Source: an uncultured Acidimicrobiia bacterium (GTDB lineage: Bacteria > Actinomycetota > Acidimicrobiia > Spongiisociales > UBA5794). From it: a stretch of 64,000 nucleotides of DNA. The first letter of the stretch is position 1, and each line of letters begins with the position of its first letter. Under the pieces are notes generated by a model, which did no database searches, was not told where the DNA came from, and worked only from the letters and a program-made list of their open reading frames with translations. Location: contig CAVPHV010000017.1 of the NCBI GenBank assembly GCA_963704825.1, positions 234,994-298,993 on the forward strand, in the 5' to 3' direction. Shown piece by piece: positions 128 to 12,950 of this stretch. Both the position numbers and the translations under genes were made by a program.

Positions 128-997
128 TCAGGCGGGTTCGGGGTCGTTCCCGTCTCGGTCGTGGTCGCCCCACCACAGGGTGCGTTGCGGGAACGCGATG
201 ACGATGCCGTGTTCCTTGAGTGAGCGGCTGATGGCGCGAGCGGTCGCGTCGGTGACGACGTAGCCGGACAAGATGTCGGAGGCATGCCAGAAGCGGACCA
301 AGAAATCGATGGACGAGTCGCCGTATGCCATGACGTAGGCCTCGGGGGCCGGGTCCGGTTCGACCCCGGCTGCTGCGGTCACGGCGGCCTCGAGCACCTG
401 CTTGGTTTGGTCGAGGTCGGTGCCGTATTCGACGCCGACTACGAGCTCGGACCGACGGTGGGCGTGGGCCGTGAGGGTGACGATCGGATTGGCCAGTACG
501 GCCGAGTTCGGGATCGCAACCCGTTCGCCGCTCTCGGTTGTGACTACCACCGACCTCCCGTTGACGTCCTCCACCCTTCCGGAGTATTCGTGCGTGGTGA
601 TCTCGTCGCCCACGACGAACGGGGCGCGAGTCTGGAGGATCAAGCCGGCGCCAAAATTCTCGAGGATCACCCGACCGGCAATGACGATCAGGGCGAGGAT
701 CACGATGATGAAGATCACCAGCGGTCCGATGTCGACGCCGAGGAAGGGAAGCGCGAACACGACACCGAGCAGCCGGATCGACCAGGTGGTTGCCGTTGTG
801 ATCATGCTGGCGATCCGCGGCGGGATCCCGTCGAAGGCGGTGAGGCCGCGCCGGAGAGCCTTCTTGGCGATCCAGGCCAATACAAACGCGGTGAGCACCG
901 TGGCGAGGGCCCACAGGTAGTCCCAACCTGTGACGTTCGTGGTGTCGATGAGTTCATCGACCACGCCGGGGTCGATGCTCTGTACGGCGATGCTCAC
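128..997 (-). CDS. Small-conductance mechanosensitive channel (MscS family)
   Basis: 289 aa; three N-terminal TM helices, 'ENFGAGLILQTRAPFVVGDEI', 'IPNSAVLANPIVT', C-terminal 'GIVIAFPQR'. Confidence 0.9.
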   Translation of the reverse strand: MSIAVQSIDPGVVDELIDTTNVTGWDYLWALATVLTAFVLAWIAKKALRRGLTAFDGIPPRIASMITTATTWSIRLLGVVFALPFLGVDIGPLVIFIIVILALIVIAGRVILENFGAGLILQTRAPFVVGDEITTHEYSGRVEDVNGRSVVVTTESGERVAIPNSAVLANPIVTLTAHAHRRSELVVGVEYGTDLDQTKQVLEAAVTAAAGVEPDPAPEAYVMAYGDSSIDFLVRFWHASDILSGYVVTDATARAISRSLKEHGIVIAFPQRTLWWGDHDRDGNDPEPA

Positions 998-1054: not shown

Positions 1055-3418
1055 TCAGCGCAGGGCGGCGCCGAAGTGGTCGCCACCGCCGGCGGTACCG
1101 GGAATGCCGGACGAGTTCTGATGCCACGTCTGATCGCGGGCGGGCGTGAGCCCGGACCCCGATCCGAAGATGACCTGGACGACTCCGGTGTCGGCTGCAC
1201 CTGAGATGCTCTCGAACGGCACCCCGACGACGAGGTCCATGAACCCGCCACCGTTGTAGTCCCCGATGGTCACCGCGAACCCGAAGTTGTCTCCGCTTTC
1301 ACCGGTACCAGAGATGCCGGACGAGTCTTGATGCCACAGCCGGTTGCCCTCAACGGTGAGGCCGGAGGTTGCGCCCAGGATGACATTGACGGCGCCGTTG
1401 GTTCCTCGGTCCCGGGGTACCCCGACGGCGAGGTCGGCGTTGTGGTCCCCGTTGAAGTCCCCCGTTGCCAGTGCTGCGCCGAAGTTGTCGTTTGCCTTGG
1501 CGGCCCCAACGATGTTGGCGGTCTTCTGCTTCCACATCTGGTTCCCCGCGGCCGCCAACCCCGATCCTGCGCCGTAGAGGACGTTGACGGCGCCGGTGTT
1601 GGTGACCCCGGCGATGTCCTCGAGTGGCACTCCGACGGCGAGGTCATCGCGATCGTCAGCATCGAAGTCGCCGGCGGCAAGGGCGGAACCGAAGTGATCG
1701 TTTGCCTGGCCGGAGCCCAGGATGTTGGCCTTGTTCTGGTGCCACAGTTGATTGCCGGTGGCGCGCAGCCCGCCACCGGTCCCGTAGATCACGTTGACGG
1801 CGCCCATGTTGGCGACGGACTTGATGTCCTCGAACGGCACCCCGACGGCGAGGTCGTCGCGGTTGTTGTCGTCGAAGTCTCCCGAGGTCAGCGCCGAACC
1901 AAAGGCATCTCCGGCATTGCCCACCCCGGTGATGTCGCTGCGATCCTGGGTCCACAGTTGGTTGCGAGCGGCACCCAGTCCGCTTCCCGATCCGTACAGG
2001 ACGTTCACCGCACCGGCGTCGGCTGCATTGAGGTCTTCACCAGGGACCCCGATGGCGAGGTCATCGAAGCTGTCGCCGTCGAAGTCGCCCGAAACCAATG
2101 CCGCTCCAAATTGGTCACCCGGTTGCATGGCGCCTTGGACATCCGGGCTGTCCTGGGTCCACTGTTGGTCACCTGCCGCGCTCAGGCCGTTGGCGGTCCC
2201 GTACAGCACGTTGACCTCACCGCGTTCGCTGTTGTTGCCCGGCGCGCCGATGGCGACGTCGCTGAAGCCGTCGCCATCGAAGTCACCGCAGGCCACCGCC
2301 GCTCCAAACCGGTCACCTGCGCCGGGGCCACCGGCAACTCCGGTCGATCCTTGATGCCACAGCTGGTTTCCCTGGGAGCCAAGACCGTCGGCCGACCCGT
2401 AGATCACGTTGACGACTCCGGCGTCGGGCTGGCCCGCCTCGTTGTCGTCGGGTGCGCCGATGGCGACATCCGAGATCCCATCGCCGTTGATGTCGCAGGC
2501 CAGCTCTGGGCGGGGGGCGTGGGCGAGCATCACGATCTCCTGGCCGTCCGAGAACAGCGTCTGTGGTGCGCCGGCGCCATCACGTTGGACGGTGGTGCCG
2601 GATCGCCCCTCGTAGCCTTCACCGGCGTACCTCACATAGAAGAGCGTGGTGCTGTCGGTGTCCCACACCGGCGATTCCAGCTGGTGGTTGGACGAGTCGC
2701 GGACGGTGACCGTCCCGCCGTCGGCGTCCTCCTCGACCACCTGCCACCCGCCGCCGATGACGACGTAGGCGATCTTGCGGCCGTCGGGTGACCACGCCGG
2801 TTGTGCCACGTTGCCGGCTGCCAGCTGATACGAGCCGGTGCCGTCGAGGTTGGTGACGTAGATGCCGTCGTGGCGTTCGTAGGCCAGGCGCGACCCGGAG
2901 GGGTCCCACGTCGGGTTGATGCCGCTGCGCGTCCCGGGGATGGTCTTCTGTTGCGTTCCGTCTGCCCTCATCCGCATGATGACGCAGCAACTGTTGGCGT
3001 CCATGTTGCCCTCGGTATTGCGGGAGAAGGCAATCCAGTTGCCGTTGGCAGACCAGGCAGGGTCGAAGTCGCCGAGTTCAGGGTTGGTCAGCTGTTGGAG
3101 TCCGCTGCCGTCGACATTGACGACGAAGATGGCCCAGCGACCGTCGGTCCCGTCGGTGATGGGGCCTGAGTAGGCGATTCTGGTGCCGTCGGGGGAGTAC
3201 GCCGGGCGGCTGATGATCGGCCTGCTGAGGGGGGTTCGGTCGTCGAAGCCGGCACCATTGGTGATCTTCAGTTCGTAGTAGAAGCCGGAGCCTCCTTGGC
3301 TGCCTTCCTCGACGGCCAGGAAGGCGAAGTCGTCGTCGGCGCTGTCGGCGGCGGCAGGCACCGCGGTGGCAACGACGGCGAGAACCACCACTGCGATCAA
3401 CGGTGTCAGCCTGCTCAT
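1055..3418 (-). CDS. Secreted protein: TolB-like (PD40) beta-propeller plus seven FG-GAP/integrin-alpha repeats
   Basis: 787 aa; signal peptide; repeats PAYSPDG, PAWSANG, PTWDPSG, PAWSPDG, PVWD; seven 'DxxxDxA(I/V)G(A/V)P' Ca-binding repeats; ATGA overlap with upstream gene at 3415-3418. Confidence 0.9.
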   Translation of the reverse strand: MSRLTPLIAVVVLAVVATAVPAAADSADDDFAFLAVEEGSQGGSGFYYELKITNGAGFDDRTPLSRPIISRPAYSPDGTRIAYSGPITDGTDGRWAIFVVNVDGSGLQQLTNPELGDFDPAWSANGNWIAFSRNTEGNMDANSCCVIMRMRADGTQQKTIPGTRSGINPTWDPSGSRLAYERHDGIYVTNLDGTGSYQLAAGNVAQPAWSPDGRKIAYVVIGGGWQVVEEDADGGTVTVRDSSNHQLESPVWDTDSTTLFYVRYAGEGYEGRSGTTVQRDGAGAPQTLFSDGQEIVMLAHAPRPELACDINGDGISDVAIGAPDDNEAGQPDAGVVNVIYGSADGLGSQGNQLWHQGSTGVAGGPGAGDRFGAAVACGDFDGDGFSDVAIGAPGNNSERGEVNVLYGTANGLSAAGDQQWTQDSPDVQGAMQPGDQFGAALVSGDFDGDSFDDLAIGVPGEDLNAADAGAVNVLYGSGSGLGAARNQLWTQDRSDITGVGNAGDAFGSALTSGDFDDNNRDDLAVGVPFEDIKSVANMGAVNVIYGTGGGLRATGNQLWHQNKANILGSGQANDHFGSALAAGDFDADDRDDLAVGVPLEDIAGVTNTGAVNVLYGAGSGLAAAGNQMWKQKTANIVGAAKANDNFGAALATGDFNGDHNADLAVGVPRDRGTNGAVNVILGATSGLTVEGNRLWHQDSSGISGTGESGDNFGFAVTIGDYNGGGFMDLVVGVPFESISGAADTGVVQVIFGSGSGLTPARDQTWHQNSSGIPGTAGGGDHFGAALR

Positions 3419-3888
3419 TGGATCCCCGGCGGGTAGGCGGATGTGATCTTGATCGCGGCCAGCAACTGGCCGGCGCGCCGCGCTGCTTCCTCCCGGTTGG
3501 CGTAGCTGCCGATGACGATGTACAGGCAGAACGCCCGGCCGTTCTCCGTGAAGAAGTCCTGATACCCGGCTTGGTTGGGGATCCAGCGCTGGAGCCGATT
3601 GGTGCCGAAGCGGTCGGGGTCGATGCGACTGGGCAGAGTGCCGGGGGAGAACAGCGCCGAGTTGACCGCTTCATCGCCGTACTCGAGCAGGGAAATGAAG
3701 ACGTCGTTTGGTCCCATCACCTCGACGGCGCGGCTGCCGAAGTCGCCCCGCGCCTCGGGGAGGGGGAACGTGGCGGCGTGCAGTACCGGCTTGGACACGT
3801 CCTCAGGCTCACGGGGCAGGTGCCTGGTGATCCTCACCTCCCAGCCGACCGGAGTGTCGGCGCGCAGGCCATGGGCTTCGACCCTCAT
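3415..3888 (-). CDS. Hypothetical protein (157 aa) in the mau-like operon
   Basis: Start MRVEAHGL at 3888 overlaps the upstream stop (ATGA); its stop overlaps the next start; the longer track ORF (to 4368) is a shadow extension. Confidence 0.75.
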   Translation of the reverse strand: MRVEAHGLRADTPVGWEVRITRHLPREPEDVSKPVLHAATFPLPEARGDFGSRAVEVMGPNDVFISLLEYGDEAVNSALFSPGTLPSRIDPDRFGTNRLQRWIPNQAGYQDFFTENGRAFCLYIVIGSYANREEAARRAGQLLAAIKITSAYPPGIQ

Positions 3889-4574
3889 GCGGCCACCGCG
3901 GCGAGCAATGCGGCGGTGCCGGCAACAGCACAGGATGCCGCCAGCACGTTGTTCATGGGTTGGGCGAACGCCTCGACCCTGCGGTGGAGGCGCTGCAGCC
4001 CCGAGGCGGTCGTGACCCGCCGAGTCGAGAGCAGGGGCAGCGCTCGAGCCAGCCCAAAGGCGATCCCGATGATGAGTCCGCCCTGCCATGAGAAGGTGAG
4101 GAATTCGATGAGGAACATGAGGTAGATGGCCGCGGTCGGAACGATGGTGGCCCAGCCGAGGCCGAGTTGGTAACCGAAGCCGAAGCCGACGACCCAGCCC
4201 CGATAGGTGTCGAGCCAGTTTTCGTTGACCTGGCGGTGGACGGTTGGCAGAGGAATACGGATCCAGCCCATCTCGGCGGCGGCAACGATGAGGGCGAGAA
4301 CGCCAATCACGATCGCAACAGTTGCGGTGCCGGGCCGGACGGACGCGGGGATCAGACTGCCGAGCCACCCAAGGGTGATCCCGACGGTTGCGCCACCGGC
4401 GATGGAGCCGGCGAAATAGAACGCCGTCGTCGTCGCCCAGTTTCTTTCACGTCCCTGCTCACCGAGCGGGGTGATGCTGGCCAGCATCGACTCTCCTCAC
4501 GGCGACCAACTGGAGCGGATCGCGGCTGCGACGGCGATCACGACTCCGGCGACAATGATTCCGACGCTGGTCAT
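3885..4574 (-). CDS. MauF/DsbD-CcdA-like membrane protein with in-frame UGA at codon 26 (probable selenocysteine), 229 aa
   Basis: ATG 4574 overlaps the upstream stop (ATGA) and reads MTSVGIIVAGVVIAVAAAIRSSWSP-TGA-GESMLASITPLGE in frame with track ORF 3885..4487; UGA aligns with the Cys of the MauF-type WSPCG motif; multi-TM body. Confidence 0.75.
4459..4488 (-). promoter_or_regulatory. Candidate bacterial SECIS region after the in-frame UGA
   Basis: mRNA after UGA: GGAGAGUC-GAUGCU(GGCC)AGCAUC, then UCACC(CCGCUC)GGUGA; palindrome GATGCTGGCCAGCATC at 4473-4488 and second stem at 4459-4474. Folded by eye only. Confidence 0.45.
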
Positions 4575-5302
4575 TGCTCTTCGTCTTCCTGGTCCTGGTC
4601 CGGATAGAGGCTGGGGTGACCGGGGTAGATGCCGGCAGCCAGCAACTCTCGGTCGACGACATCCTCACGATCGGCGTCGGCCCGGGCCTTGCGGCGCTTG
4701 CGGGTCTTGGTGTCGTCGAGTGCCTCGCCCATGAGACGCAACAGCTGATCCCAGGTGCTGGCTGAGCCTTCGCCGGCGATCGATCCGTTCGTTCCATCGA
4801 CGAGTACGAAGTATGGGGAGCCGGGCACCTGGTAGTCGTTCCAGGCTTGATCGGACATGACCACGGGGTAGTCACCCGACGCCAGCTTGGCGATACGTGA
4901 CGGACTCTCCTCGTTCTCACCCTTGGTGAGCACGATGAGGCGGGTGGTGCCGAGCCCATTGGGACCCTTGTCGAACGTCTCCCAAAACTCGGCGCAGCCG
5001 AGACATCCGCTGGAGAGGAAGGCCAGGAGCGTCTTCTGCTTGGCTCCGAGCACGCGGATCCCGATGCCGTCACCCTCCGGCCCGGTACCCGAGATGTCGT
5101 GGGCCTGGATCACTTCGCCCCGCGGCGTTGCCACCGACGGGGCGAAGTTGAGGTCCGGCGTGCTCTGGTCGTGATCGTGTTCGAGGCCCGCCCCGAGACT
5201 GTCGAGTTGGCGGAGGATCTCGGCGTGGCTGCGCAGCAGGCTGGCGACGAGAAGGCCGAGCAGGAGGATCACGGCGGCCTCGGCGATGATGAGGGCGGTC
5301 AT
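4571..5302 (-). CDS. MauD-like membrane-anchored thioredoxin-fold protein
   Basis: 243 aa from MTALIIAEAAVILLLGLL; N-terminal TM; 'FLSSGCLGC' CxxC; 'YQVPGSPYFVLVDG' cis-Pro loop; ATGA-coupled on both sides. Confidence 0.8.
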   Translation of the reverse strand: MTALIIAEAAVILLLGLLVASLLRSHAEILRQLDSLGAGLEHDHDQSTPDLNFAPSVATPRGEVIQAHDISGTGPEGDGIGIRVLGAKQKTLLAFLSSGCLGCAEFWETFDKGPNGLGTTRLIVLTKGENEESPSRIAKLASGDYPVVMSDQAWNDYQVPGSPYFVLVDGTNGSIAGEGSASTWDQLLRLMGEALDDTKTRKRRKARADADREDVVDRELLAAGIYPGHPSLYPDQDQEDEEQ

Positions 5303-5919
5303 GTGCAGTCTCCCGCCAAGCAGGGCGCGGTCTGCTGGCCGGTCTGGTTGTCGATCCGCAGCGAGGTGCCACAGTCGTCGAACAACTGGTACGGCGGAAC
5401 ACAGGTCACCACCCGGCAGGCGACGGGGCCGCTGCACCCGATCTCCGTGTGGCATTGGCCGTACCGGAAGTAGTTGCAGCACACCCGCCGACGGTCGCAG
5501 GTCGTCTCGTTGCAGCGGCATTGGCAGGAGATGCACGATGGGTTACAGAAGCGACCGTTCTCGCACCCGTTGGTGCAGATGCACTGGGGGTGACAGTCGA
5601 TGTAGTAGCGGGCCCTGGGGTTGCCGTTCCCATCGCAGCAGTAGGTCGAACTGTCGGCTCGCCACCAGCCGCCGACGAACATCCCCGGTGGGCAGCGGTT
5701 GATGCCGCGGTTTGTGGTGCAGCAGAAGATCGTGTAGCCATTCGAGCACTCGGAGTACGGACCGCAGACGGCGGCATATGCCGTCATCGGACGCAAGATG
5801 AAGTCGAGCGGAGCCGTCAGCAGAGCCGAGCCGACGACGGCGACTCTGGCCAGGAAGGAGCGGCGGCTGTGTTCTCCGCCGAGGGCTCGGGCGGTACGTT
5901 CGGCAAGGCGGCGGCTCAT
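5299..5919 (-). CDS. Tat-exported Cys-rich protein, distantly MauA (methylamine dehydrogenase light chain)-like
   Basis: 206 aa; Tat motif 'SRRSFL'; about 26 Cys; 'NRCPPGMFVGGWWRADSSTYC...RYYIDC' resembles MauA 'NCPPGTKLATASWVASC...IAYRDC'. Confidence 0.75.
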   Translation of the reverse strand: MSRRLAERTARALGGEHSRRSFLARVAVVGSALLTAPLDFILRPMTAYAAVCGPYSECSNGYTIFCCTTNRGINRCPPGMFVGGWWRADSSTYCCDGNGNPRARYYIDCHPQCICTNGCENGRFCNPSCISCQCRCNETTCDRRRVCCNYFRYGQCHTEIGCSGPVACRVVTCVPPYQLFDDCGTSLRIDNQTGQQTAPCLAGDCT

Positions 5920-6437
5920 GTTTCGGCCCTCACTGGGATGACGGTGGGTACGACGTTGAGGATCAGATAGGCAAACCAGGTGCCCATCGCAACGAAGGCG
6001 ACCAGAACCAGGCCGGCTGGGGGATCGCCGGCGACGGCATCGAGGATGCCGGTCGCAGGCGCGGCGACGGCACCGAGCGCAACTGCTGCGGCGGCGAGGT
6101 TGAGGATGAGGTGCGCCCACGTCGGCGGCGTGTCGTCACGCCCGAAGCATCCACAGGAAGCGACGACGCCACCCTTGGCGAGGGCATACCCCACAAAGCC
6201 GGCGAATCCGAGGTACACGATGGCAACGAGCAATGCGCTGACGCTGCCACCGAAGAGCAGGGCGTACGTGCCGATTGTGATCTCGCCGAGCGCCATGAGC
6301 CGCACCAGCAGGGGAGATCCGGGTAAGGAAACAGAGCGAAGGGCTCGCGCCGTCTCGTCGGGACGGGCGAGCTTTGGTGCCCCCGCCACAACAAGGAGGA
6401 GGGAGGCGATGTAGAGCGGTCCAGCCATCGTCTGCAT
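5916..6437 (-). CDS. MauE/DoxX family membrane protein
   Basis: 173 aa from MQTMAG (or 6428 MAGPLY); 'AGAPKL', TM helices, 'ASCGCFG' and 'HLILN' MauE signature. Confidence 0.85.
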   Translation of the reverse strand: MQTMAGPLYIASLLLVVAGAPKLARPDETARALRSVSLPGSPLLVRLMALGEITIGTYALLFGGSVSALLVAIVYLGFAGFVGYALAKGGVVASCGCFGRDDTPPTWAHLILNLAAAAVALGAVAAPATGILDAVAGDPPAGLVLVAFVAMGTWFAYLILNVVPTVIPVRAET

Positions 6438-6448
6438 CGGTGGCCGGG

Positions 6449-6476
6449 ATAGTGGCATCTCAAATCGAGATGTCAA
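6449..6476 (-). promoter_or_regulatory. Sigma70-type promoter of the mau-like operon with an internal palindromic operator
   Basis: Minus strand TTGACA (6476-6471)-16 nt-CACTAT (6454-6449); inverted repeat CATCTC-N5-GAGATG at 6456-6472. Confidence 0.6.
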
Positions 6477-6494: not shown

Positions 6495-6716
6495 TCAGCG
6501 ATAGAAGATGGCTGAGATGATGGTGGCGGCCCCCGCAAGTGCGATCAGGAGTGCGATGAATCGGATCAGGAAACTGGTCGAGGCCATCAGACCTCCCGTG
6601 GATCGGGAGAACCGGGCGGGCCAGTGTGCGGCGAGTCGATCGACCAAGGCGAGCGAGTTCGATGCGAGCGCCGTTCCGATCAGAAGGAGTGCCACGCCGA
6701 AGACGATCAGGCCCAT
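6495..6716 (-). CDS. Small membrane protein (73 aa)
   Basis: Two hydrophobic segments; AAGGAG RBS upstream; fills an otherwise empty gap. Confidence 0.6.
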   Translation of the reverse strand: MGLIVFGVALLLIGTALASNSLALVDRLAAHWPARFSRSTGGLMASTSFLIRFIALLIALAGAATIISAIFYR

Positions 6717-6829
6717 GTTGCTCCTTGTCTGTCCTCTTCACGATACGGGTGATGACTACCGGCCAACAGAGCATTCTGGACGGTTGTCACGTGGCGAGAC
6801 CGGGTTTCGGCAGTGGGTACTATGCGTTG

Positions 6830-7243
6830 ATGTCCGACCAACCCTCGGTTCTCTTCCTCTGCACCCACAATGCCGGCCGTTCGCAGATGGCGGCCGGCTG
6901 GCTGCGGTCGCTGTCCGGAGGGAAGGTCGGTGTCTACTCCGCTGGATCGAGTCCGGGGGATGCGGTGAATCCGGTTGCCGTCGCCGCCATGGCTGAGGTT
7001 GGGATCGACATCGCCGCGGCTCAACCCCAGCAGTGGACCGACGACATGGTCCGGGTCGCCGACGTCATCGTGTCGATGGGCTGCGGTGATACCTGCCCGG
7101 TCTTTCCGGGCAAGCGGTACCTCGATTGGGAGCTCGACGATCCCCACGGTGCCGGCATCGAGGCGGTACGTCCGATCCGCGATGAGATCGAGGTTCGCAT
7201 TCGCGGGCTGCTGGCCGAGCTGGGAGCTGATGCCGTCGACTGA
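6830..7243 (+). CDS. arsC: Arsenate reductase ArsC / low-molecular-weight phosphatase family
   Basis: 137 aa from MSDQPSVLFL; CX5R loop 'CTHNAGRS', 'MGCGDTCP', 'DWELDDP'. Confidence 0.85.
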   Translation: MSDQPSVLFLCTHNAGRSQMAAGWLRSLSGGKVGVYSAGSSPGDAVNPVAVAAMAEVGIDIAAAQPQQWTDDMVRVADVIVSMGCGDTCPVFPGKRYLDWELDDPHGAGIEAVRPIRDEIEVRIRGLLAELGADAVD

Positions 7244-7280
7244 GCGGCACGTTTCGATCCGCGCGGCACCACCTGTCGCC

Positions 7281-7952
7281 TCAAGTTTCGTGTTCCAGGA
7301 TCTGATCCGTCACTGCCGTGAGGTCTGATCCGATGATGTCGGGCTCGGGGAACAGCGGATTGACGACCATGCCCGGCCTCGTGACGTAGGCGCCGGCGCA
7401 GCCCGCCCACATCGCTCCGGCGATGTCCCAGTCGTGAGCGGCGACCATGCGCATCGCGGCGGTGGTCACGCCGAGGCGGTCGGCGGCCATTCGGTACACG
7501 GCGGCGGCGGGCTTGAACCGGCCGGTCGGCCCCACGGACATGATCTCGTCGAAGCAGCCTGCGATGCCCGCATTGGCCAGCTGGGTCTCCGCAGCGTCCT
7601 GGGGCGAGTTGGTCAGCGCCACGATGCGCAGCCCGGCGTCGTTGAGACGCTGCAGGCTGGGGACAACATCGGGATGTGGCGGCAGAGCGGCCATGGCGCC
7701 TGCGACTGCGGCTCCATCGGCCGCGGAGACGGTGACGTCGCGTTGGTCGGCGACCATACCGAGCGAGGCGGCGCCCACGGCAACGAAGTCGTGGTAGTCA
7801 CCGATGATGGTGAGGGTCAGGGCATTGCGCAGCACGAGGCCGAACCACTGCCGGCGCACCGCAGCATCGCCGAAGATGCGCTCGAAATGGGGGTCGAGGG
7901 CTCTGAGGTCGAGCAGGGTTTCGTTGACGTCGAAGACAAGAACGCGAGCCAC
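7281..7952 (-). CDS. Haloacid dehalogenase type II (HAD family)
   Basis: GTG start, 'VFDVNETLLD', 'LTNS', 'FKP', 'MVAAHDWDIAGA'. Confidence 0.9.
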   Translation of the reverse strand: MARVLVFDVNETLLDLRALDPHFERIFGDAAVRRQWFGLVLRNALTLTIIGDYHDFVAVGAASLGMVADQRDVTVSAADGAAVAGAMAALPPHPDVVPSLQRLNDAGLRIVALTNSPQDAAETQLANAGIAGCFDEIMSVGPTGRFKPAAAVYRMAADRLGVTTAAMRMVAAHDWDIAGAMWAGCAGAYVTRPGMVVNPLFPEPDIIGSDLTAVTDQILEHET

Positions 7953-8090: not shown

Positions 8091-8771
8091 GTGCACATTC
8101 CGGACGGGTTCATCAACCCCGGTGTCTCCGCCGCCGCCGGCGTGGTGGCGGCCGGTGGCTTTGGCGTTGCCGTGCGTCGGGCTCGGGCCTACCTCACGGA
8201 GCGGCTTGTCCCGTTGGCGGCACTGGTCGCCGCATTTGTGTTTGCGGCCCAGATGATCAACTTTCCCGTTCTTCCCGGCATGAGCGGCCATCTCATCGGA
8301 GGAGTGCTCGCCGCCGTGCTGGTTGGCCCGGCCGCCGGCTACATCGTGATGAGCATCGTCCTGATCGTCCAGGCGCTCGTCTTCGCCGACGGCGGCCTCT
8401 CTGCCCTTGGGCTCAACATCGTGAACATGGGCCTGGTTGGAGCGGTTGGTGGCTACTACGTGTTCCGCGCCCTGATGCGGGCGACCGGAAATCGTCGCGG
8501 CCGTGTCCCGATGGTCGCCGGATTTGCCGCCTTCGTCTCGGTGCCGATGGCGGCAGTCGCCTTCGCCGTCGAGTTCGCTCTCGGCGGTACCGCCGAGAGC
8601 CTGTCGATGGGCGCCATCCTCTGGGCACTGCTCACAACCCACACCCTGATCGGGATCGGCGAGGGCCTCATCACGGCTTTGGTGCTTGGTGCGGTGATGT
8701 CCGCTCGACCCGATCTCGTGTACGGCTCGCCGAGCTTCTCCGGGCGCCGGGCCGAGGAGTCGGTCCGATGA
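8091..8771 (+). CDS. cbiM: ECF Ni/Co transporter substrate-binding component CbiM/NikM
   Basis: N-terminal MHIPDG metal-binding motif; 'QMINFP', 'SGHLIGG', 'ALGLNIVNM'. Confidence 0.93.
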   Translation: MHIPDGFINPGVSAAAGVVAAGGFGVAVRRARAYLTERLVPLAALVAAFVFAAQMINFPVLPGMSGHLIGGVLAAVLVGPAAGYIVMSIVLIVQALVFADGGLSALGLNIVNMGLVGAVGGYYVFRALMRATGNRRGRVPMVAGFAAFVSVPMAAVAFAVEFALGGTAESLSMGAILWALLTTHTLIGIGEGLITALVLGAVMSARPDLVYGSPSFSGRRAEESVR

Positions 8772-9100
8772 GTTCCGGGGGACGGCGGCGCAACGTGGCA
8801 CTGTTCGTCGGGGCCTTGGCGCTGGTTCTGGTGACTGCCGTTGGGCTCTCGCAGATTGCGTCGGATCAACCCGATGGGCTCGAGTACGTCGCCGACCAGG
8901 AAGGCTTCGCCGAGTCGGCGGATGAGCATGTCCTGGCCGAGACGCCGCTGGCCGACTACGGCGGGAATCTCGACGGAGCCGATTCGACCAACGTCGCGCT
9001 CGCCGGCCTCGTCGGGGTACTCGTCACCTTGGGCCTCGGGTTTGGAGTCTTCTGGCTCGTCCGAGCGGGTGGCACGCCACCCAAATCGGCCGGGAGTTGA
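8768..9100 (+). CDS. PDGLE-domain protein (NikN/CbiN-like)
   Basis: 'PDGLE' motif between two TM helices; overlaps the cbiM stop. Confidence 0.9.
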   Translation: MSSGGRRRNVALFVGALALVLVTAVGLSQIASDQPDGLEYVADQEGFAESADEHVLAETPLADYGGNLDGADSTNVALAGLVGVLVTLGLGFGVFWLVRAGGTPPKSAGS

Positions 9101-9101
9101 G

Positions 9102-9866
9102 GTGGCGGGCGGTCACGTCCACGCGCTCTACCGTCACGGTCACTCCGTTGTGCATCGGATGGCGCCGCAGATCAAGGTTCTCGCGGCATTTGGGTTCGTG
9201 CTCGCCGTGGTCGTCACCCCACGCGAGGCTTTCTGGGCGTTTGGCCTGTACCTCGTGGCGCTGATACTCCTCATGGCCATCACGCGACTCCCGATGCGCT
9301 TTGTCCTGCGCCGGATGGTGGTCGAGATCCCGTTCTTGGTTGTTGCCGTCATGCTCCCGTTGTTTGGATCGGGGGATCGGATCGACGTTCTAGGCGTGTC
9401 GCTGTCCGAACAAGGGCTCTGGGACATGTGGAACCTCTTGGCCAAGGCCACCCTGGGCCTGCTCACCGCCATCGTTCTCGGGGCCACCACCCAGGTACCG
9501 GACTTGCTCAAGGGGCTCGACGCCCTCCACGTTCCCGCGGTCGTCACCGCCATCATCTCGTTCATGGTTCGCTACGTCGATGTCATCCTCGGCGAGTTCT
9601 CCCGAATGCAGGTGGCGATGGCGTCGCGGGGCCACGAGGTCCGCTCGGTGATGGGGTGGCGTCCGTACGCCAAGACGTTTGGCGCAATGTTCGTGCGCAC
9701 CTACGAACGCGGCGAACGGGTCTACCTGGCGATGGCGTCGCGGGGCTACTCGGGGACCATGCCGGCGTCGATGCGAGTTCCGGCTCCGGCTCGGCAGTGG
9801 GTCGTCGGGCTGGGACTGGTCGCGGCCGCCTGGCTGGTGGCGTACGCCGCATGGGCACAGCAATGA
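9102..9866 (+). CDS. cbiQ: ECF transporter T component CbiQ/NikQ
   Basis: GTG start MAGGHVH; 'SFMVRY', 'MASRG', 'RTYERGERVYLAMASRGY'. Confidence 0.92.
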   Translation: MAGGHVHALYRHGHSVVHRMAPQIKVLAAFGFVLAVVVTPREAFWAFGLYLVALILLMAITRLPMRFVLRRMVVEIPFLVVAVMLPLFGSGDRIDVLGVSLSEQGLWDMWNLLAKATLGLLTAIVLGATTQVPDLLKGLDALHVPAVVTAIISFMVRYVDVILGEFSRMQVAMASRGHEVRSVMGWRPYAKTFGAMFVRTYERGERVYLAMASRGYSGTMPASMRVPAPARQWVVGLGLVAAAWLVAYAAWAQQ

Positions 9867-10597
9867 CGGCGCCGGTGATCGCGGTGGACGGCCTCGACTT
9901 CGTGTACCCGGACGGTACTGCGGCGCTCGAGGGGATCTACCTCCACGTTCATCGCGGCGAGCGCATCGCTTTGCTGGGACCGAACGGAGCCGGCAAGACG
10001 ACGTTGGTGCTCCACCTCAACGGCATCCACATGCCTCAGCAGGGCACGATTGATGTTTCAGGGTTGCGGCTCGATGGAGACTCGGTGATGGAGATTCGGC
10101 GACGGGTCGGCATCGTCTTCCAGGATCCCGACGATCAATTGTTCATGACGACCGTCCGCGAGGACGTCGCGTTCGGCCCCCGCAACCTCGGACTCACGGG
10201 TGACGAGCTGAGCCGGCGGGTCGCTCTTGCCTTGGCCGCGGTCGAGGTGGACGATCTTGCCGATCGGCCGCCGTCGCACCTTTCATTCGGGCAGAAACGC
10301 CGGGTGGCCATCGCCGGAGTGCTCGCCATGGACCCCGAGATCATCATCCTCGACGAGCCGACCTCGAACCTCGATCCGGCAAGCCGACGGGAGCTGTCGG
10401 CGACCCTGCAGGGCCTCGATGTGACTCAGATGATCGTCACCCACGACCTGCTGTACGCGTTGGAACTGTGTGAACGTGCGGTGATCCTCGACCGGGGGGC
10501 CATCGTCGCCGACGGGCCAACCCGGGAGTTGCTCGCCGACACCGATCTGCTCGAGCGCCATCGGCTGGCCCTCCCCACCGGAGTGCGCCTCGCATGA
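9863..10597 (+). CDS. cbiO: ECF transporter ATPase CbiO/NikO
   Basis: Walker A GPNGAGKT, 'FQDPDDQLF', 'LSFGQKRR', 'LDEPT'. Confidence 0.93.
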   Translation: MTAPVIAVDGLDFVYPDGTAALEGIYLHVHRGERIALLGPNGAGKTTLVLHLNGIHMPQQGTIDVSGLRLDGDSVMEIRRRVGIVFQDPDDQLFMTTVREDVAFGPRNLGLTGDELSRRVALALAAVEVDDLADRPPSHLSFGQKRRVAIAGVLAMDPEIIILDEPTSNLDPASRRELSATLQGLDVTQMIVTHDLLYALELCERAVILDRGAIVADGPTRELLADTDLLERHRLALPTGVRLA

Positions 10598-10649
10598 CGT
10601 TCCGGCGTGGCTGAGGTACCAGAAAACGCGCTCGAGCCACGCCGGAACG
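10598..10649. repeat. REP-like palindromic element, family A copy 1 (inverted relative to other copies)
   Basis: 15-bp arms CGTTCCGGCGTGGCT/AGCCACGCCGGAACG; reverse complement matches the elements at 35275 and 41240. Confidence 0.85.
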
Positions 10650-11312: not shown

Positions 11313-12029
11313 TCAGCCGACGCGCGGATCGTCTGCAAGCCGTTGCTCCACCAAGACAACGACGGCGGCCGCGATGTCCTGGTATGAGACCGTTGCCGTG
11401 TTGAACGTCGCGTCGTAGTTGGTCGGGTCGCCGACGTCGATCTGGAAGTTGATCTTGAGGAGCCGGGCCCGGTGGGTGTCTCGCTTCTTCATGAGAACGC
11501 GAGCCGCTCGTTCGTTGAGATCGTGGATCTCCATCAACCGGTGGACCCGATGGTCCTCGGGGGCGACAAGGCGGAGGGCAACCCCGTAGGGCATCCCTTT
11601 GGTCACCTGGGACCCGCCCCGGCCGACAATGACGGCCTTGCCGAGAGTGGCCAACGCCCGTACGACTCGAAAGACCCGATTCATCACAACATCCTGGTGG
11701 AGCTGCGTGCCCATCATCTGGCGGAAGAACTCGTCGGTCCGCGAGCGGTACTCCTCCTCCTGCATTGCATCGATCGACGATGCATAGCGCGGGTCCTCGG
11801 CGACGATCTCGCACAATCGTTGGTCGAACACCTTCCAGCCGCCGAAGAGGTCGCGGTCGTCGTGATGGGCGAACGCTTCGAGGAGGGCATCGGCCAGGGA
11901 GTGGCCGCCGGCCCCGGCTTGGCGGGAGATGGTGATGAACGGCTGGGGTCGTGGCTCAGTTGTGCGCTGAGCCTCCTCGGCGGCCATCTGCGCCCTGATG
12001 AAGAGGTCGATGCCCTCGATGTGTCTCAT
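11313..12029 (-). CDS. Cytidylate kinase-like family protein
   Basis: 'ITISRQAGAGG' degenerate P-loop, 'VIVGRGG', 'DPTNYDATFNT'. Confidence 0.85.
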   Translation of the reverse strand: MRHIEGIDLFIRAQMAAEEAQRTTEPRPQPFITISRQAGAGGHSLADALLEAFAHHDDRDLFGGWKVFDQRLCEIVAEDPRYASSIDAMQEEEYRSRTDEFFRQMMGTQLHQDVVMNRVFRVVRALATLGKAVIVGRGGSQVTKGMPYGVALRLVAPEDHRVHRLMEIHDLNERAARVLMKKRDTHRARLLKINFQIDVGDPTNYDATFNTATVSYQDIAAAVVVLVEQRLADDPRVG

Positions 12030-12104
12030 GGCGACTCCACGACACCACAGGCGTCGCTCGCCCACCAGGGTCGGGAGGCCCTTACTGTGGCGGCCTTGGT
12101 CCGG

Positions 12105-12950
12105 TCAGGGGCGGGGCGGGCCCTCCATCACTCGCGCCAGCCATTCTTCGGGACTTCCCGCCGTCCCCGGGATCCATCCCTCACGCCACCAGGTAGCGCC
12201 GGCGTCTTCGAGTGCAGCGAGGTAGTCGCCGTGGCGGTCGTCCTCATCGAGGGCCGCCCCGCCGGGAGCGACATCGAAGTGGTGATCGGACTCGCGGTGC
12301 GCCTTGACGTAGGCCACGATCTCGGCCAGCACACCGGCCGTCATCGGCTCGAACTCGTAGCCGTCTGAGATGATCGGGACGACGCCGTCCCAACAGGCGG
12401 CCCGCCGGAAGGGCCGTCGTTTCGGCCACATCCCGGCTACCCAGATTGGGATGCGTGGTTTCTGGACCGGAGTCGGCAGGAACGTGACCGGCTCGACCTG
12501 GTAGTGGTCGCCCTCAAACGAGAACAACTCGCCGCTCCACAAGCCGGTAAGGACGGTGAGGCCTTCGTCGAGCATGTCCGCCCTGGTGCGCAGATCAACC
12601 TCGCCGTGGAACCGGGTGAACTCTGGGTCTGTCGGCCACCCGAGTCCGACGCCGAGGATGAAACGACCCTGGGACAGGAGGTCAATGCTCACGGTCTCGC
12701 GCGCCAGCTTCCAGGGGTGGCGGCGGGGGATCGGCGTGACCATCGGCATCAGCGTGATTCGCTCGGTCACGGTCGCGGCGGCAGCGAGCGAGATCCACGG
12801 ATCGGCAACCTCGGCTCCGTCCCACACGATGATGTGGTCCCAGATCGAGAGGCCGTCCCAGCCGACGTCTTCGATTCTGCGGGCAAACTCGGCAACTTCG
12901 CCGGGATCCGACCACGGGCCGAAATTGGGGATGTCGACCGCATACTTCAT
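12105..12950 (-). CDS. LLM-class flavin-dependent oxidoreductase
   Basis: 'GLSIWDH', 'DPWISLAAAATVTERI', 'RRHPWKLARETVSIDLLSQGRFILGVGLG'. Confidence 0.9.
   Translation of the reverse strand: MKYAVDIPNFGPWSDPGEVAEFARRIEDVGWDGLSIWDHIIVWDGAEVADPWISLAAAATVTERITLMPMVTPIPRRHPWKLARETVSIDLLSQGRFILGVGLGWPTDPEFTRFHGEVDLRTRADMLDEGLTVLTGLWSGELFSFEGDHYQVEPVTFLPTPVQKPRIPIWVAGMWPKRRPFRRAACWDGVVPIISDGYEFEPMTAGVLAEIVAYVKAHRESDHHFDVAPGGAALDEDDRHGDYLAALEDAGATWWREGWIPGTAGSPEEWLARVMEGPPRP

Follow-up and report, generated by a model that had tools for sequence, protein, structure and literature searches.

A predicted selenocysteine-containing MauF homologue in a conserved actinobacterial gene module with a Cys-rich, wall-associated protein

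What do homologues of the methylamine dehydrogenase accessory proteins do in an operon with no recognisable methylamine dehydrogenase, and can one of them be made through an in-frame stop codon? These questions are raised by a 64,000-nucleotide (nt) stretch of contig CAVPHV010000017.1 from an uncultured Acidimicrobiia bacterium, hereafter the window. Its operon region (positions 1055–6476, minus strand) contains six open reading frames (ORFs), g1–g6, which are coupled by five ATGA stop/start overlaps at 5916–5919, 5299–5302, 4571–4574, 3885–3888 and 3415–3418 (Table 1). A first-pass annotation had described these six overlapping genes as a Mau-like operon, and all five overlaps were found exactly where it had placed them. 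In proteobacteria, methylamine dehydrogenase has a light chain rich in disulfides, which cannot be made without the accessory proteins MauF, MauE and MauD. MauG makes tryptophan tryptophylquinone (TTQ), and MauB is the β-propeller heavy chain of the enzyme. We are not aware that a role has been assigned to MauF since the first description of the mau genes, and we know of no worked-out account of what MauF, MauE and MauD do in methylamine dehydrogenase biogenesis.

The fourth gene of the operon, g4, carries a TGA at codon 26. This site is readable in 59 related loci, where it is TGA in 50 and TGC or TGT in the remaining nine. Kineococcus sp. DHX-1, K. gynurae NBRC 103943 and Phycicoccus sp. HDW14 are among the carriers of the TGA form. 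The 25 codons upstream of the UGA are conserved in frame, with residues R20, W23, S24 and P25 invariant, and the upstream ATG of g4 overlaps the g3 stop codon in the window. Apart from the codon-26 TGA, none of the six genes has a stop codon within its frame in any locus, and at least 120 metagenome contigs carry the UGA together with the pattern of the first hairpin that follows it. Since g1–g5 of the same operon all end with TGA, the possibility that the genetic code is recoded was dismissed. Taken together, the conserved UGA, the Cys homologues, an element resembling a selenocysteine insertion sequence (SECIS) and linked sel genes identify g4 as a predicted selenoprotein, in which the single conserved cysteine of MauF is replaced by selenocysteine (Sec26) encoded by UGA. 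The same four lines of evidence strongly support the earlier suggestion that the pathway was possibly selenium-dependent.

The SECIS-like element consists of two hairpins directly downstream of the UGA, both recovered by RNAalifold. The GGN loop of hairpin 2 begins 33 nt past the UGA. In the alignment, 97.2% of cells are paired, and helix 2 has undergone compensatory change at three of its pairs; the observed covariation was reached by none of 500 shuffles. In the TGA forms, 287 of 288 positions are paired in hairpin 1 and 367 of 384 in hairpin 2. The Cys forms, which serve as an internal control, retain only 29/54 and 41/72 paired positions, respectively. Correspondingly, the TGA forms use the fixed synonymous codons TCG, AGC, CCG, CTC and CGG, whereas the Cys forms encode the same amino acids with mixed codons. 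Helix 2, which lay outside the pattern used for scanning, is kept in 77 new, unique metagenome sequences. Its loop is always GGN in these sequences, and pair 33–49 is C–G in 60 of them, U–A in nine and U–G in five. Single-sequence RNA folding z-scores are weak (−1.2 to −1.9), and the case for the SECIS therefore rests on the comparative data. Searches of Rfam gave no family match for this region or anywhere else in the window. On this evidence, the element is a SECIS-like candidate specific to the UGA forms of g4.

The Pro codon directly before the UGA (window positions 4500–4502) also differs between the two forms. Of 48 Sec forms, 35 use CCT, which is seldom used in genomes of such high GC content, and the Cys forms mostly use CCG. 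The CCT codon may exert a context effect on Sec insertion or on termination.

Genes for selenocysteine synthesis and insertion are linked to the module in some genomes. Six loci of the TGA type have a tRNA-Sec gene no more than 10 kb from the cluster, and selD and selA adjoin it in five of these six. Both genes were read from ORF translations in loci L011 and L077, and the order in L077 is selD-selA-selB-tRNA-Sec-g2. In several of the loci concerned (L011, 4789–7314; L077, 5771–9882; L079; L076; L017), the sel genes stand directly against the module. The SelD encoded beside the cluster is a Cys form (GGGCACK, ECGGCAAK). This arrangement hints that g4 may be a principal selenoprotein in genomes whose sel genes abut the module, and it suggests that g4 may be a main reason why these aerobes keep a selenocysteine machinery.

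The assignment of g4 to the MauF family was made against the mau cluster of Paracoccus denitrificans PD1222, which has the order mauR-F-B-E-D-A, amicyanin, J, G, M, N. In hhalign, the g4 family profile matched P. denitrificans MauF with a probability of 98.8% (E 6.3e-17) over 166 columns, and tblastn with MauF alone matched 33 of the related loci (best E 7.7e-14); the earlier description of g4 as MauF-like is thus borne out. The MauF segment STWSPCGYS aligns with SSWSP-U-GES of g4, where U is Sec. Position 26 lies in the first membrane helix, within the motif WSP-U-GES, and is the sole conserved Cys/Sec column of g4; MauF likewise has a single conserved Cys position (WSPCG). Pfam DsbD_2 matches six of 17 g4 family members (best E 7.7e-11), and DsbD_TM also matches in relatives. 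DsbD and CcdA have two essential Cys residues, one in each half of the membrane domain, and g4 does not fit this description. Because MauF and g4 each have one conserved Cys position and the family matches DsbD_2, the g4/MauF family is best classified as a single-cysteine branch of the DsbD superfamily and not as a CcdA-type two-cysteine transporter, a placement drawn from motif and profile comparison. Redox residues that take part in catalysis are classically recognised by exchange between Sec and Cys. On that ground, the exchange at this position singles out the cysteine of WSPCG as the likely working residue of MauF.

The g4 family appears to be an unlisted selenoprotein family. A May 2026 review presents 119 prokaryotic selenoprotein families with models (PMC13188914). 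The g4 family is not among these 119, and the review includes no MauF/DsbD_2 membrane protein with the WSP-U-GES motif (PMC13188914). No model of NCBIfam release 20 matches g4, and the papers describing BSepDB and deep-Sep do not mention the family. No account of the module or of a Sec-containing MauF was found in the literature, in which Haft and Tolstoy 2025 was covered only through the review table and NCBIfam. The 120 database homologues of g4 that were listed are all N-terminally truncated; most have 190–213 residues and a few about 260–296, and those that bear a name are called hypothetical proteins, TauE/SafE sulfite exporters or MFS permeases. The public gene calls of g4 (P0121–P0240) all begin past the UGA, a systematic annotation error that extends over hundreds of genomes.

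Two further genes of the operon encode homologues of the Mau accessory proteins. The g1 protein matches Pfam MauE (PF07291) with 60.8 bits (E 2.2e-16), above the cut-off of 27 bits, which agrees with its earlier description as MauE-like; the genuine P. denitrificans MauE scores 101.6 bits. Its SCGCFG segment aligns with the DCGCF of MauE (IDCGCF in Paracoccus, within a membrane helix), and the CGC motif is kept in every related locus. An alternative start of g1, an ATG at 6437, is used by the public gene call. For g3, the best NCBIfam match is MauD TIGR02661 (E 1.9e-4), at 21 bits against an equivalog cut-off of 188.6. BLASTP aligned g3 with P. denitrificans MauD at E 2e-9 and 27% identity over 203 amino acids (residues 1–191). 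This alignment is collinear through the anchor, the CxxC motif and the fold, and it places the CLGC of g3 opposite CPVC. The CxxC is conserved throughout, as CLGC in the window and mostly as CxTC in relatives. The MauD-like label given to g3 is accordingly upheld at the level of homology: g3 is a MauD homologue and not an equivalog. By sequence similarity, then, g1, g3 and g4 are assigned as homologues of MauE, MauD and MauF. One database protein, P0318 (624 amino acids), carries a MauE domain (residues 7–112) ahead of a g2 domain (residues 181–389). It is either a true fusion or a merged gene call; if real, the fusion would support a direct link between MauE and its client.

The g2 family occurs in more than 574 species-level genomes, of which 80 loci were listed and analysed with 10 kb on either side. 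Almost all of these loci are from Actinomycetota, including isolates of Kineococcus and Phycicoccus, and one is identified as an uncultured bacterium only. The window, which forms part of a 289-kb metagenome contig (ERZ25039600 contig_21141), has uncultured Acidimicrobiia and Euzebyaceae as its nearest relatives. Clustering of the ORFs in the 80 loci recovered g2 in 78, g5 in 72, g3 in 71, g1 in 66 and g4 in 58. The order of these genes takes two or more forms, and beyond them the most widely shared real genes reach 14 loci at most. The conserved core of the module is g1–g5. The gene-neighbourhood survey proposed with the first-pass annotation was thus carried out, and since g1–g5 co-occur in 58–78 of 80 loci from other genomes, their arrangement is not due to chance. 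No match to MauA, MauB, MauG, amicyanin, MauJ, MauM or MauN was found in the 1.32 Mb around 81 loci or in the 64-kb window. The reported lack of mauB, mauG and amicyanin therefore holds for the window and for 10 kb either side of the related loci. The MauF component is the least fixed part of the module, because Cys-type g4 is mostly placed elsewhere in the cluster, after g2 or g5, and about 20 loci have no g4 within 10 kb, many of them from Acidimicrobiales or Microthrixaceae. The loci with Cys-type or absent g4 are L016, L029, L038, L055, L069, L071, L074 and L075, and also L014, L032, L039, L041, L042, L047, L057, L060, L062, L064, L065, L068 and L073.

The presumed client of these proteins is g2. 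Its twin-arginine translocation (Tat) leader passes TIGR01409 with 17.6 bits (cut-off 16.7), with an SRRSFL motif, a hydrophobic stretch and an AYA|AV cleavage site, and R19 and R20 are invariant. All 26 Cys residues lie within the 157-residue mature part that follows the long conserved leader, so that both the Tat signal and the count of about 26 Cys given earlier were confirmed. The protein is 16% Cys, with CC, CxC and CxxC runs. The mature part contains the invariant motifs GWW, RYYIDC and FRYGQC and approximately 14 conserved Cys residues, and many other Cys positions vary. The family forms 617 clusters at 50% identity. Most homologues have 400–740 residues and carry, C-terminal to the Cys-rich domain, modules such as LGFP repeats, CWB2, DUF4214, Ricin or propeller-like repeats (examples are found in loci L025, L036, L043, L047, L058, L069 and L078 and in proteins P0297, P0320, P0386 and P0425). 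The g2 of the window is a minority short form, accompanied by g6. Because wall-binding modules follow the g2 domain in most relatives, the domain is predicted to be extracytoplasmic and wall-associated.

The relationship of g2 to the methylamine dehydrogenase light chain, MauA, is less clear. No Pfam family matches g2, including PF02975 at E ≤0.1, whereas genuine MauA scores 180 bits. A PDB sequence search with the g2 profile gave no match beyond Tat leaders and the Ricin-like tail that some members possess. An AlphaFold model of g2 built with 22 sequences, one of the checks proposed at the outset, reached a predicted local distance difference test score (pLDDT) of 60.7, and Foldseek of this model against the PDB gave nothing below E 2.9, such that no fold was assigned. 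Nevertheless, hhalign aligns the g2 segment CPPG..GGWW..C..RYYIDC with the TTQ-site segment of the light chains, which puts W86 of g2 on Trp57 of MauA and D108 on Asp76. For the mature domain against the light-chain family, E was 0.016 with a probability of 2.8%; against a Thermomicrobium MauA-like paralogue (GGAWW), E was 6.9e-4 with a probability of 26.6%. The g2 leader also resembles that of MauA (hhalign E 7.5e-4). The only Trp residues of g2 are the adjacent W85 and W86, with no later Trp for TTQ (Trp57 and Trp108 in Paracoccus). The description of g2 as MauA-like therefore stands in part: a short central motif and the leader align weakly, but PF02975, PDB and fold matches are lacking. 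Distant homology between g2 and MauA is plausible on these alignments, and a quinone cofactor on g2 is unproven. The Thermomicrobium roseum megaplasmid NC_011961 (locus L083) encodes several MauA-like paralogues, labelled 'methylamine dehydrogenase light chain', among hypothetical genes, at 11720–12172 and at about 7124–7540, and its GGAWW paralogue is the best bridge between g2 and the TTQ light chains.

The remaining two proteins of the operon showed no similarity to the Mau proteins with which they were compared. The g5 protein has no signal peptide and no match in Pfam, NCBIfam or PDB sequences, in keeping with its first listing as a protein of no recognised family. Its AlphaFold model has a pLDDT of 93.8. 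Foldseek returned weak matches only, to MucB, Tsi3, EagT6 and PsbP, with E-values of 0.03–0.1 and template modelling scores (TM-scores) of at most 0.4, and hhalign of g5 against MauJ was negative (E 0.18). A role of g5 as a cytoplasmic chaperone or proofreader for the conserved g2 leader is speculative. In g6, Pfam detects FG-GAP repeats at E 2e-51 and PD40 repeats at E 6e-22; the seven and three copies, respectively, fit the TolB/FG-GAP label it had received. Although translationally coupled to g5 in the window, g6 occurs in only 13 of the 80 loci and is an accessory of the window's sub-lineage that stands outside the conserved core. It has no similarity to MauB, and its candidacy as a replacement for the heavy chain was rejected as a mere analogy of fold type.

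It is proposed that g1–g5 form a dedicated Mau-type thiol/selenol maturation module of Actinomycetota for the disulfide-rich wall protein g2, a reading that we hold to be probable but far from certain. Here, g2 would be synthesised with its long conserved leader. Before export by the Tat system, g5 might retain or inspect it in the cytoplasm. Outside the membrane, the anchored thioredoxin g3 would use its CxxC motif to form or reshuffle g2 disulfides. In turn, g3 would be recycled via g1 (CGC) and g4 (Sec26), which together might constitute a thiol/selenol conduit resembling DsbD or CcdA but split between two proteins, through which electrons could run either way. On the outside of an aerobe's membrane, Sec could be a nucleophile that reacts faster and withstands oxidation better. 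Mature g2 would stay at the wall, held in most relatives by its own LGFP, CWB2 or Ricin modules, and in the lineage of the window retention may instead depend on the co-translated propeller protein g6. A more far-reaching version is doubtful: in it, the module is a hitherto unrecognised, selenium-dependent maturation machine of soil Actinomycetota for a new class of wall-anchored protein that is Cys-rich and either cysteine tryptophylquinone (CTQ)-like or otherwise catalytic, with Sec26 as the catalytic centre of a split relay running from MauF and MauE to MauD.

Several observations count against this proposal. At the level of the selenoprotein, hairpin 2 of the window has one C–A mismatch, the single-sequence minimum-energy fold of the window differs from the consensus, and selABCD were not found in the 64-kb window. 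At the level of the relay, g4 has one redox residue and not two as in DsbD and CcdA, so that the conduit needs an assumed partner. Around 20 loci carry no g4 within 10 kb, and the relay may therefore work without g4 or use a distant copy. Export by Tat implies that g2 folds in the cytoplasm, which is a poor fit with oxidative folding outside the membrane. Furthermore, the chaperone role given to g5 depends on fold matches that are not significant.

Five rival explanations were weighed against the maturation module, and they are considered here in descending order of weight. It is possible, though unlikely, that g2 is a new CTQ/TTQ-like quinone enzyme subunit, a divergent homologue of the TTQ light chain for which the module would build a cofactor, besides disulfides, without MauG. 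All other known occurrences of the Mau accessory triad are in clusters for TTQ dehydrogenases, the g2 segment described above aligns with the TTQ site (E 0.016, or 6.9e-4 against Thermomicrobium), and the g2 and MauA leaders are similar. These points have to be set against hhalign probabilities of just 3–27%, the missing PF02975, PDB sequence and fold matches, and the want of a second Trp for the cross-link; in addition, the conserved neighbours include no modifying enzyme of the MauG, LodB, QhpG or radical-SAM type, and no amicyanin- or cytochrome-like electron acceptor lies in the neighbourhood. With one conserved Trp pair and many Cys residues, g2 would be open only to CTQ-type quinone chemistry. 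Known CTQ enzymes (the γ subunit of quinohemoprotein amine dehydrogenase; LodA/GoxA) are small or Cys-rich and carry a Trp quinone cross-linked to Cys, but the resemblance is one of principle only, as g2 matches none of them in sequence or fold, and QhpD (a radical-SAM enzyme), QhpG and LodB are absent from the neighbourhood. Less probable again is that g2 binds a metal or cluster loaded in the cytoplasm, with the MauE/D/F relay keeping its thiols reduced or handling the metal outside. Tat export usually marks cofactor-bearing proteins, the Cys content and the CC, CxC and CxxC runs of g2 count in its favour, DsbD-superfamily relatives include metal transporters, some sources name g4 homologues TauE/SafE, and a CbiMNQ cobalt/nickel transporter lies approximately 1.6 kb upstream in the window. 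However, the roughly 14 conserved Cys residues are accompanied by aromatic and charged residues that never vary, a pattern expected of a fold knotted by disulfides; numerous Cys positions are variable, the transporter is not a conserved neighbour, and g2 has no His-rich or known metal motif.

Very improbably, the locus serves an ordinary dehydrogenase for methylamine or aralkylamines, with the genes for the heavy chain, MauG and the electron acceptor at some other place in the genome. This view draws on the presence of the MauE, MauD and MauF homologues and on the searches having been confined to the loci and the window. The view conflicts with the failure of g2 to match PF02975 (180 bits for MauA) and its lack of the second TTQ Trp, with the usual fusion of g2 to wall-binding repeats, and with the absence of MauB, MauG, amicyanin, MauJ, MauM and MauN from 1.32 Mb and the window. 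Still lower stands the view that TGA is a true stop, that g4 is a 200-residue protein made from a downstream ATG, and that the upstream frame is a 25-codon leader or non-coding. An ATG does occur 9 nt after the TGA, and all public gene calls begin past the TGA, which yields proteins of 193–208 residues. Yet the upstream frame is conserved as protein (R20, W23, S24 and P25 are invariant), nine homologues and proteobacterial MauF read through this position with Cys, an ATGA overlap joins the upstream start to the stop codon of g3, only the TGA forms have the SECIS-like element, and sel genes are linked. The lowest standing of all goes to the idea that g2 is a secreted wall-targeting toxin or bacteriocin, with g5 as its immunity protein or chaperone. 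Among the best Foldseek matches of g5, weak as they are, stand Tsi3, an immunity protein, and EagT6, a chaperone of effectors; one UniRef name of a g5 homologue is 'SUKH-3 immunity protein', and g2 bears wall-binding or lectin modules. Those fold matches all have E-values >0.03 and TM-scores of at most 0.4, no secretion-system or toxin domain was found, and the module is single-copy and vertically widespread in Actinomycetota with conserved synteny, unlike polymorphic toxin loci.

The mau cluster and the DsbD-type relays are among the known systems closest to the proposed maturation module. Like the mau cluster of Paracoccus denitrificans and Methylorubrum (mauFBEDACJGMN), the module sets MauE, MauD and MauF homologues beside a small Cys-rich protein with a Tat leader, and MauF and g4 share WSP(C/U)G with its single conserved redox residue. 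The mau cluster differs in having MauB, MauG, amicyanin, MauJ, MauM and MauN, none of which is near the module. Its client, MauA, belongs to PF02975 and has 12 Cys residues and two TTQ Trp residues, whereas g2 is outside PF02975 and has 26 Cys residues without the second Trp. Moreover, unlike the mau cluster, the module usually has a wall-binding client, and it has the extra cytoplasmic protein g5, Sec in the MauF homologue and an actinomycete host. The likeness to CcdA/DsbD with ResA, TlpA or CcmG lies in the DsbD-superfamily membership of g4, SP(C/U) in its first membrane helix and the anchored CxxC thioredoxin partner. In CcdA/DsbD, however, the two essential Cys residues are in helices 1 and 4, and g4 and MauF have only one. 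The module also differs from those systems in always having a separate CGC protein (MauE), and no link to cytochrome c maturation was seen.

Membrane or DsbD-related selenoproteins already described include TsoB (NF045694, rhodanese/DsbD fusion-like), MerT-like proteins (PF02411) and YeeE/YedE (PF04143) (PMC13188914). These proteins and g4 are all predicted membrane selenoproteins in which Sec takes the place of a redox or ligand Cys, and Cys homologues exist for each. By contrast, g4 belongs to another family with another motif (WSP-U-GES) and is found mostly in aerobic soil Actinomycetota, not in anaerobes.

The predicted g4 family would add to the known selenoproteins a membrane family that inventories and pipelines have missed and that is common in soil and freshwater Actinomycetota, including the cultivable Kineococcus and Phycicoccus. 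It also suggests that the MauE/D/F triad is not tied to methylamine dehydrogenase and would serve another widespread Cys-rich wall protein. If the reading of a selenium-dependent relay is true, it would also reveal the part that MauF, MauE and MauD play when classical methylamine dehydrogenase is made.

Table 1. Coordinates of the operon genes and of the recoding elements within g4 (positions in the window).
Feature	Position	Strand	Description
g1	5916–6476	−	MauE-family membrane protein; conserved CGC(F/L)G motif; Pfam PF07291
g2	5299–5919	−	206 aa, predicted Tat-exported, 26 Cys; TIGR01409 and family alignment
g3	4571–5302	−	MauD homologue; N-terminal membrane anchor and extracytoplasmic thioredoxin fold with CLGC
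g4	3885–4574	−	MauF homologue, DsbD superfamily, polytopic; 229 aa when read through UGA
In-frame UGA, codon 26 of g4	4497–4499	−	Read as a selenocysteine codon (predicted)
SECIS-like element, two hairpins	4453–4488	−	RNAalifold consensus and pair counts
Hairpin 1	4473–4488	−	GAUGCU-N4-AGCAUC
Hairpin 2	4453–4471	−	7–8 bp stem, GGN loop
g5	3415–3888	−	Conserved cytoplasmic protein, 157 aa; core member of the module; no family match
g6	1055–3418	−	Secreted; signal peptide, 3 PD40 (TolB-like) and 7 FG-GAP repeats

A scan for the σ70 promoter consensus found nothing, a result of little weight in a high-GC actinobacterium, and the terminator scan was likewise uninformative. An ORF of 73 amino acids with two predicted membrane helices (6495–6716, minus strand) ends 18 nt upstream of g1; it is without a counterpart in the 80 related loci. 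Other neighbours in the window, none of which is conserved beside the module in other genomes, are an MscS channel gene (128–997, minus strand), a low-molecular-weight phosphatase/ArsC-like gene (6750–7243, plus strand) and the CbiM-PDGLE-CbiQ-ABC cobalt/nickel uptake system (8091–10600, plus strand).

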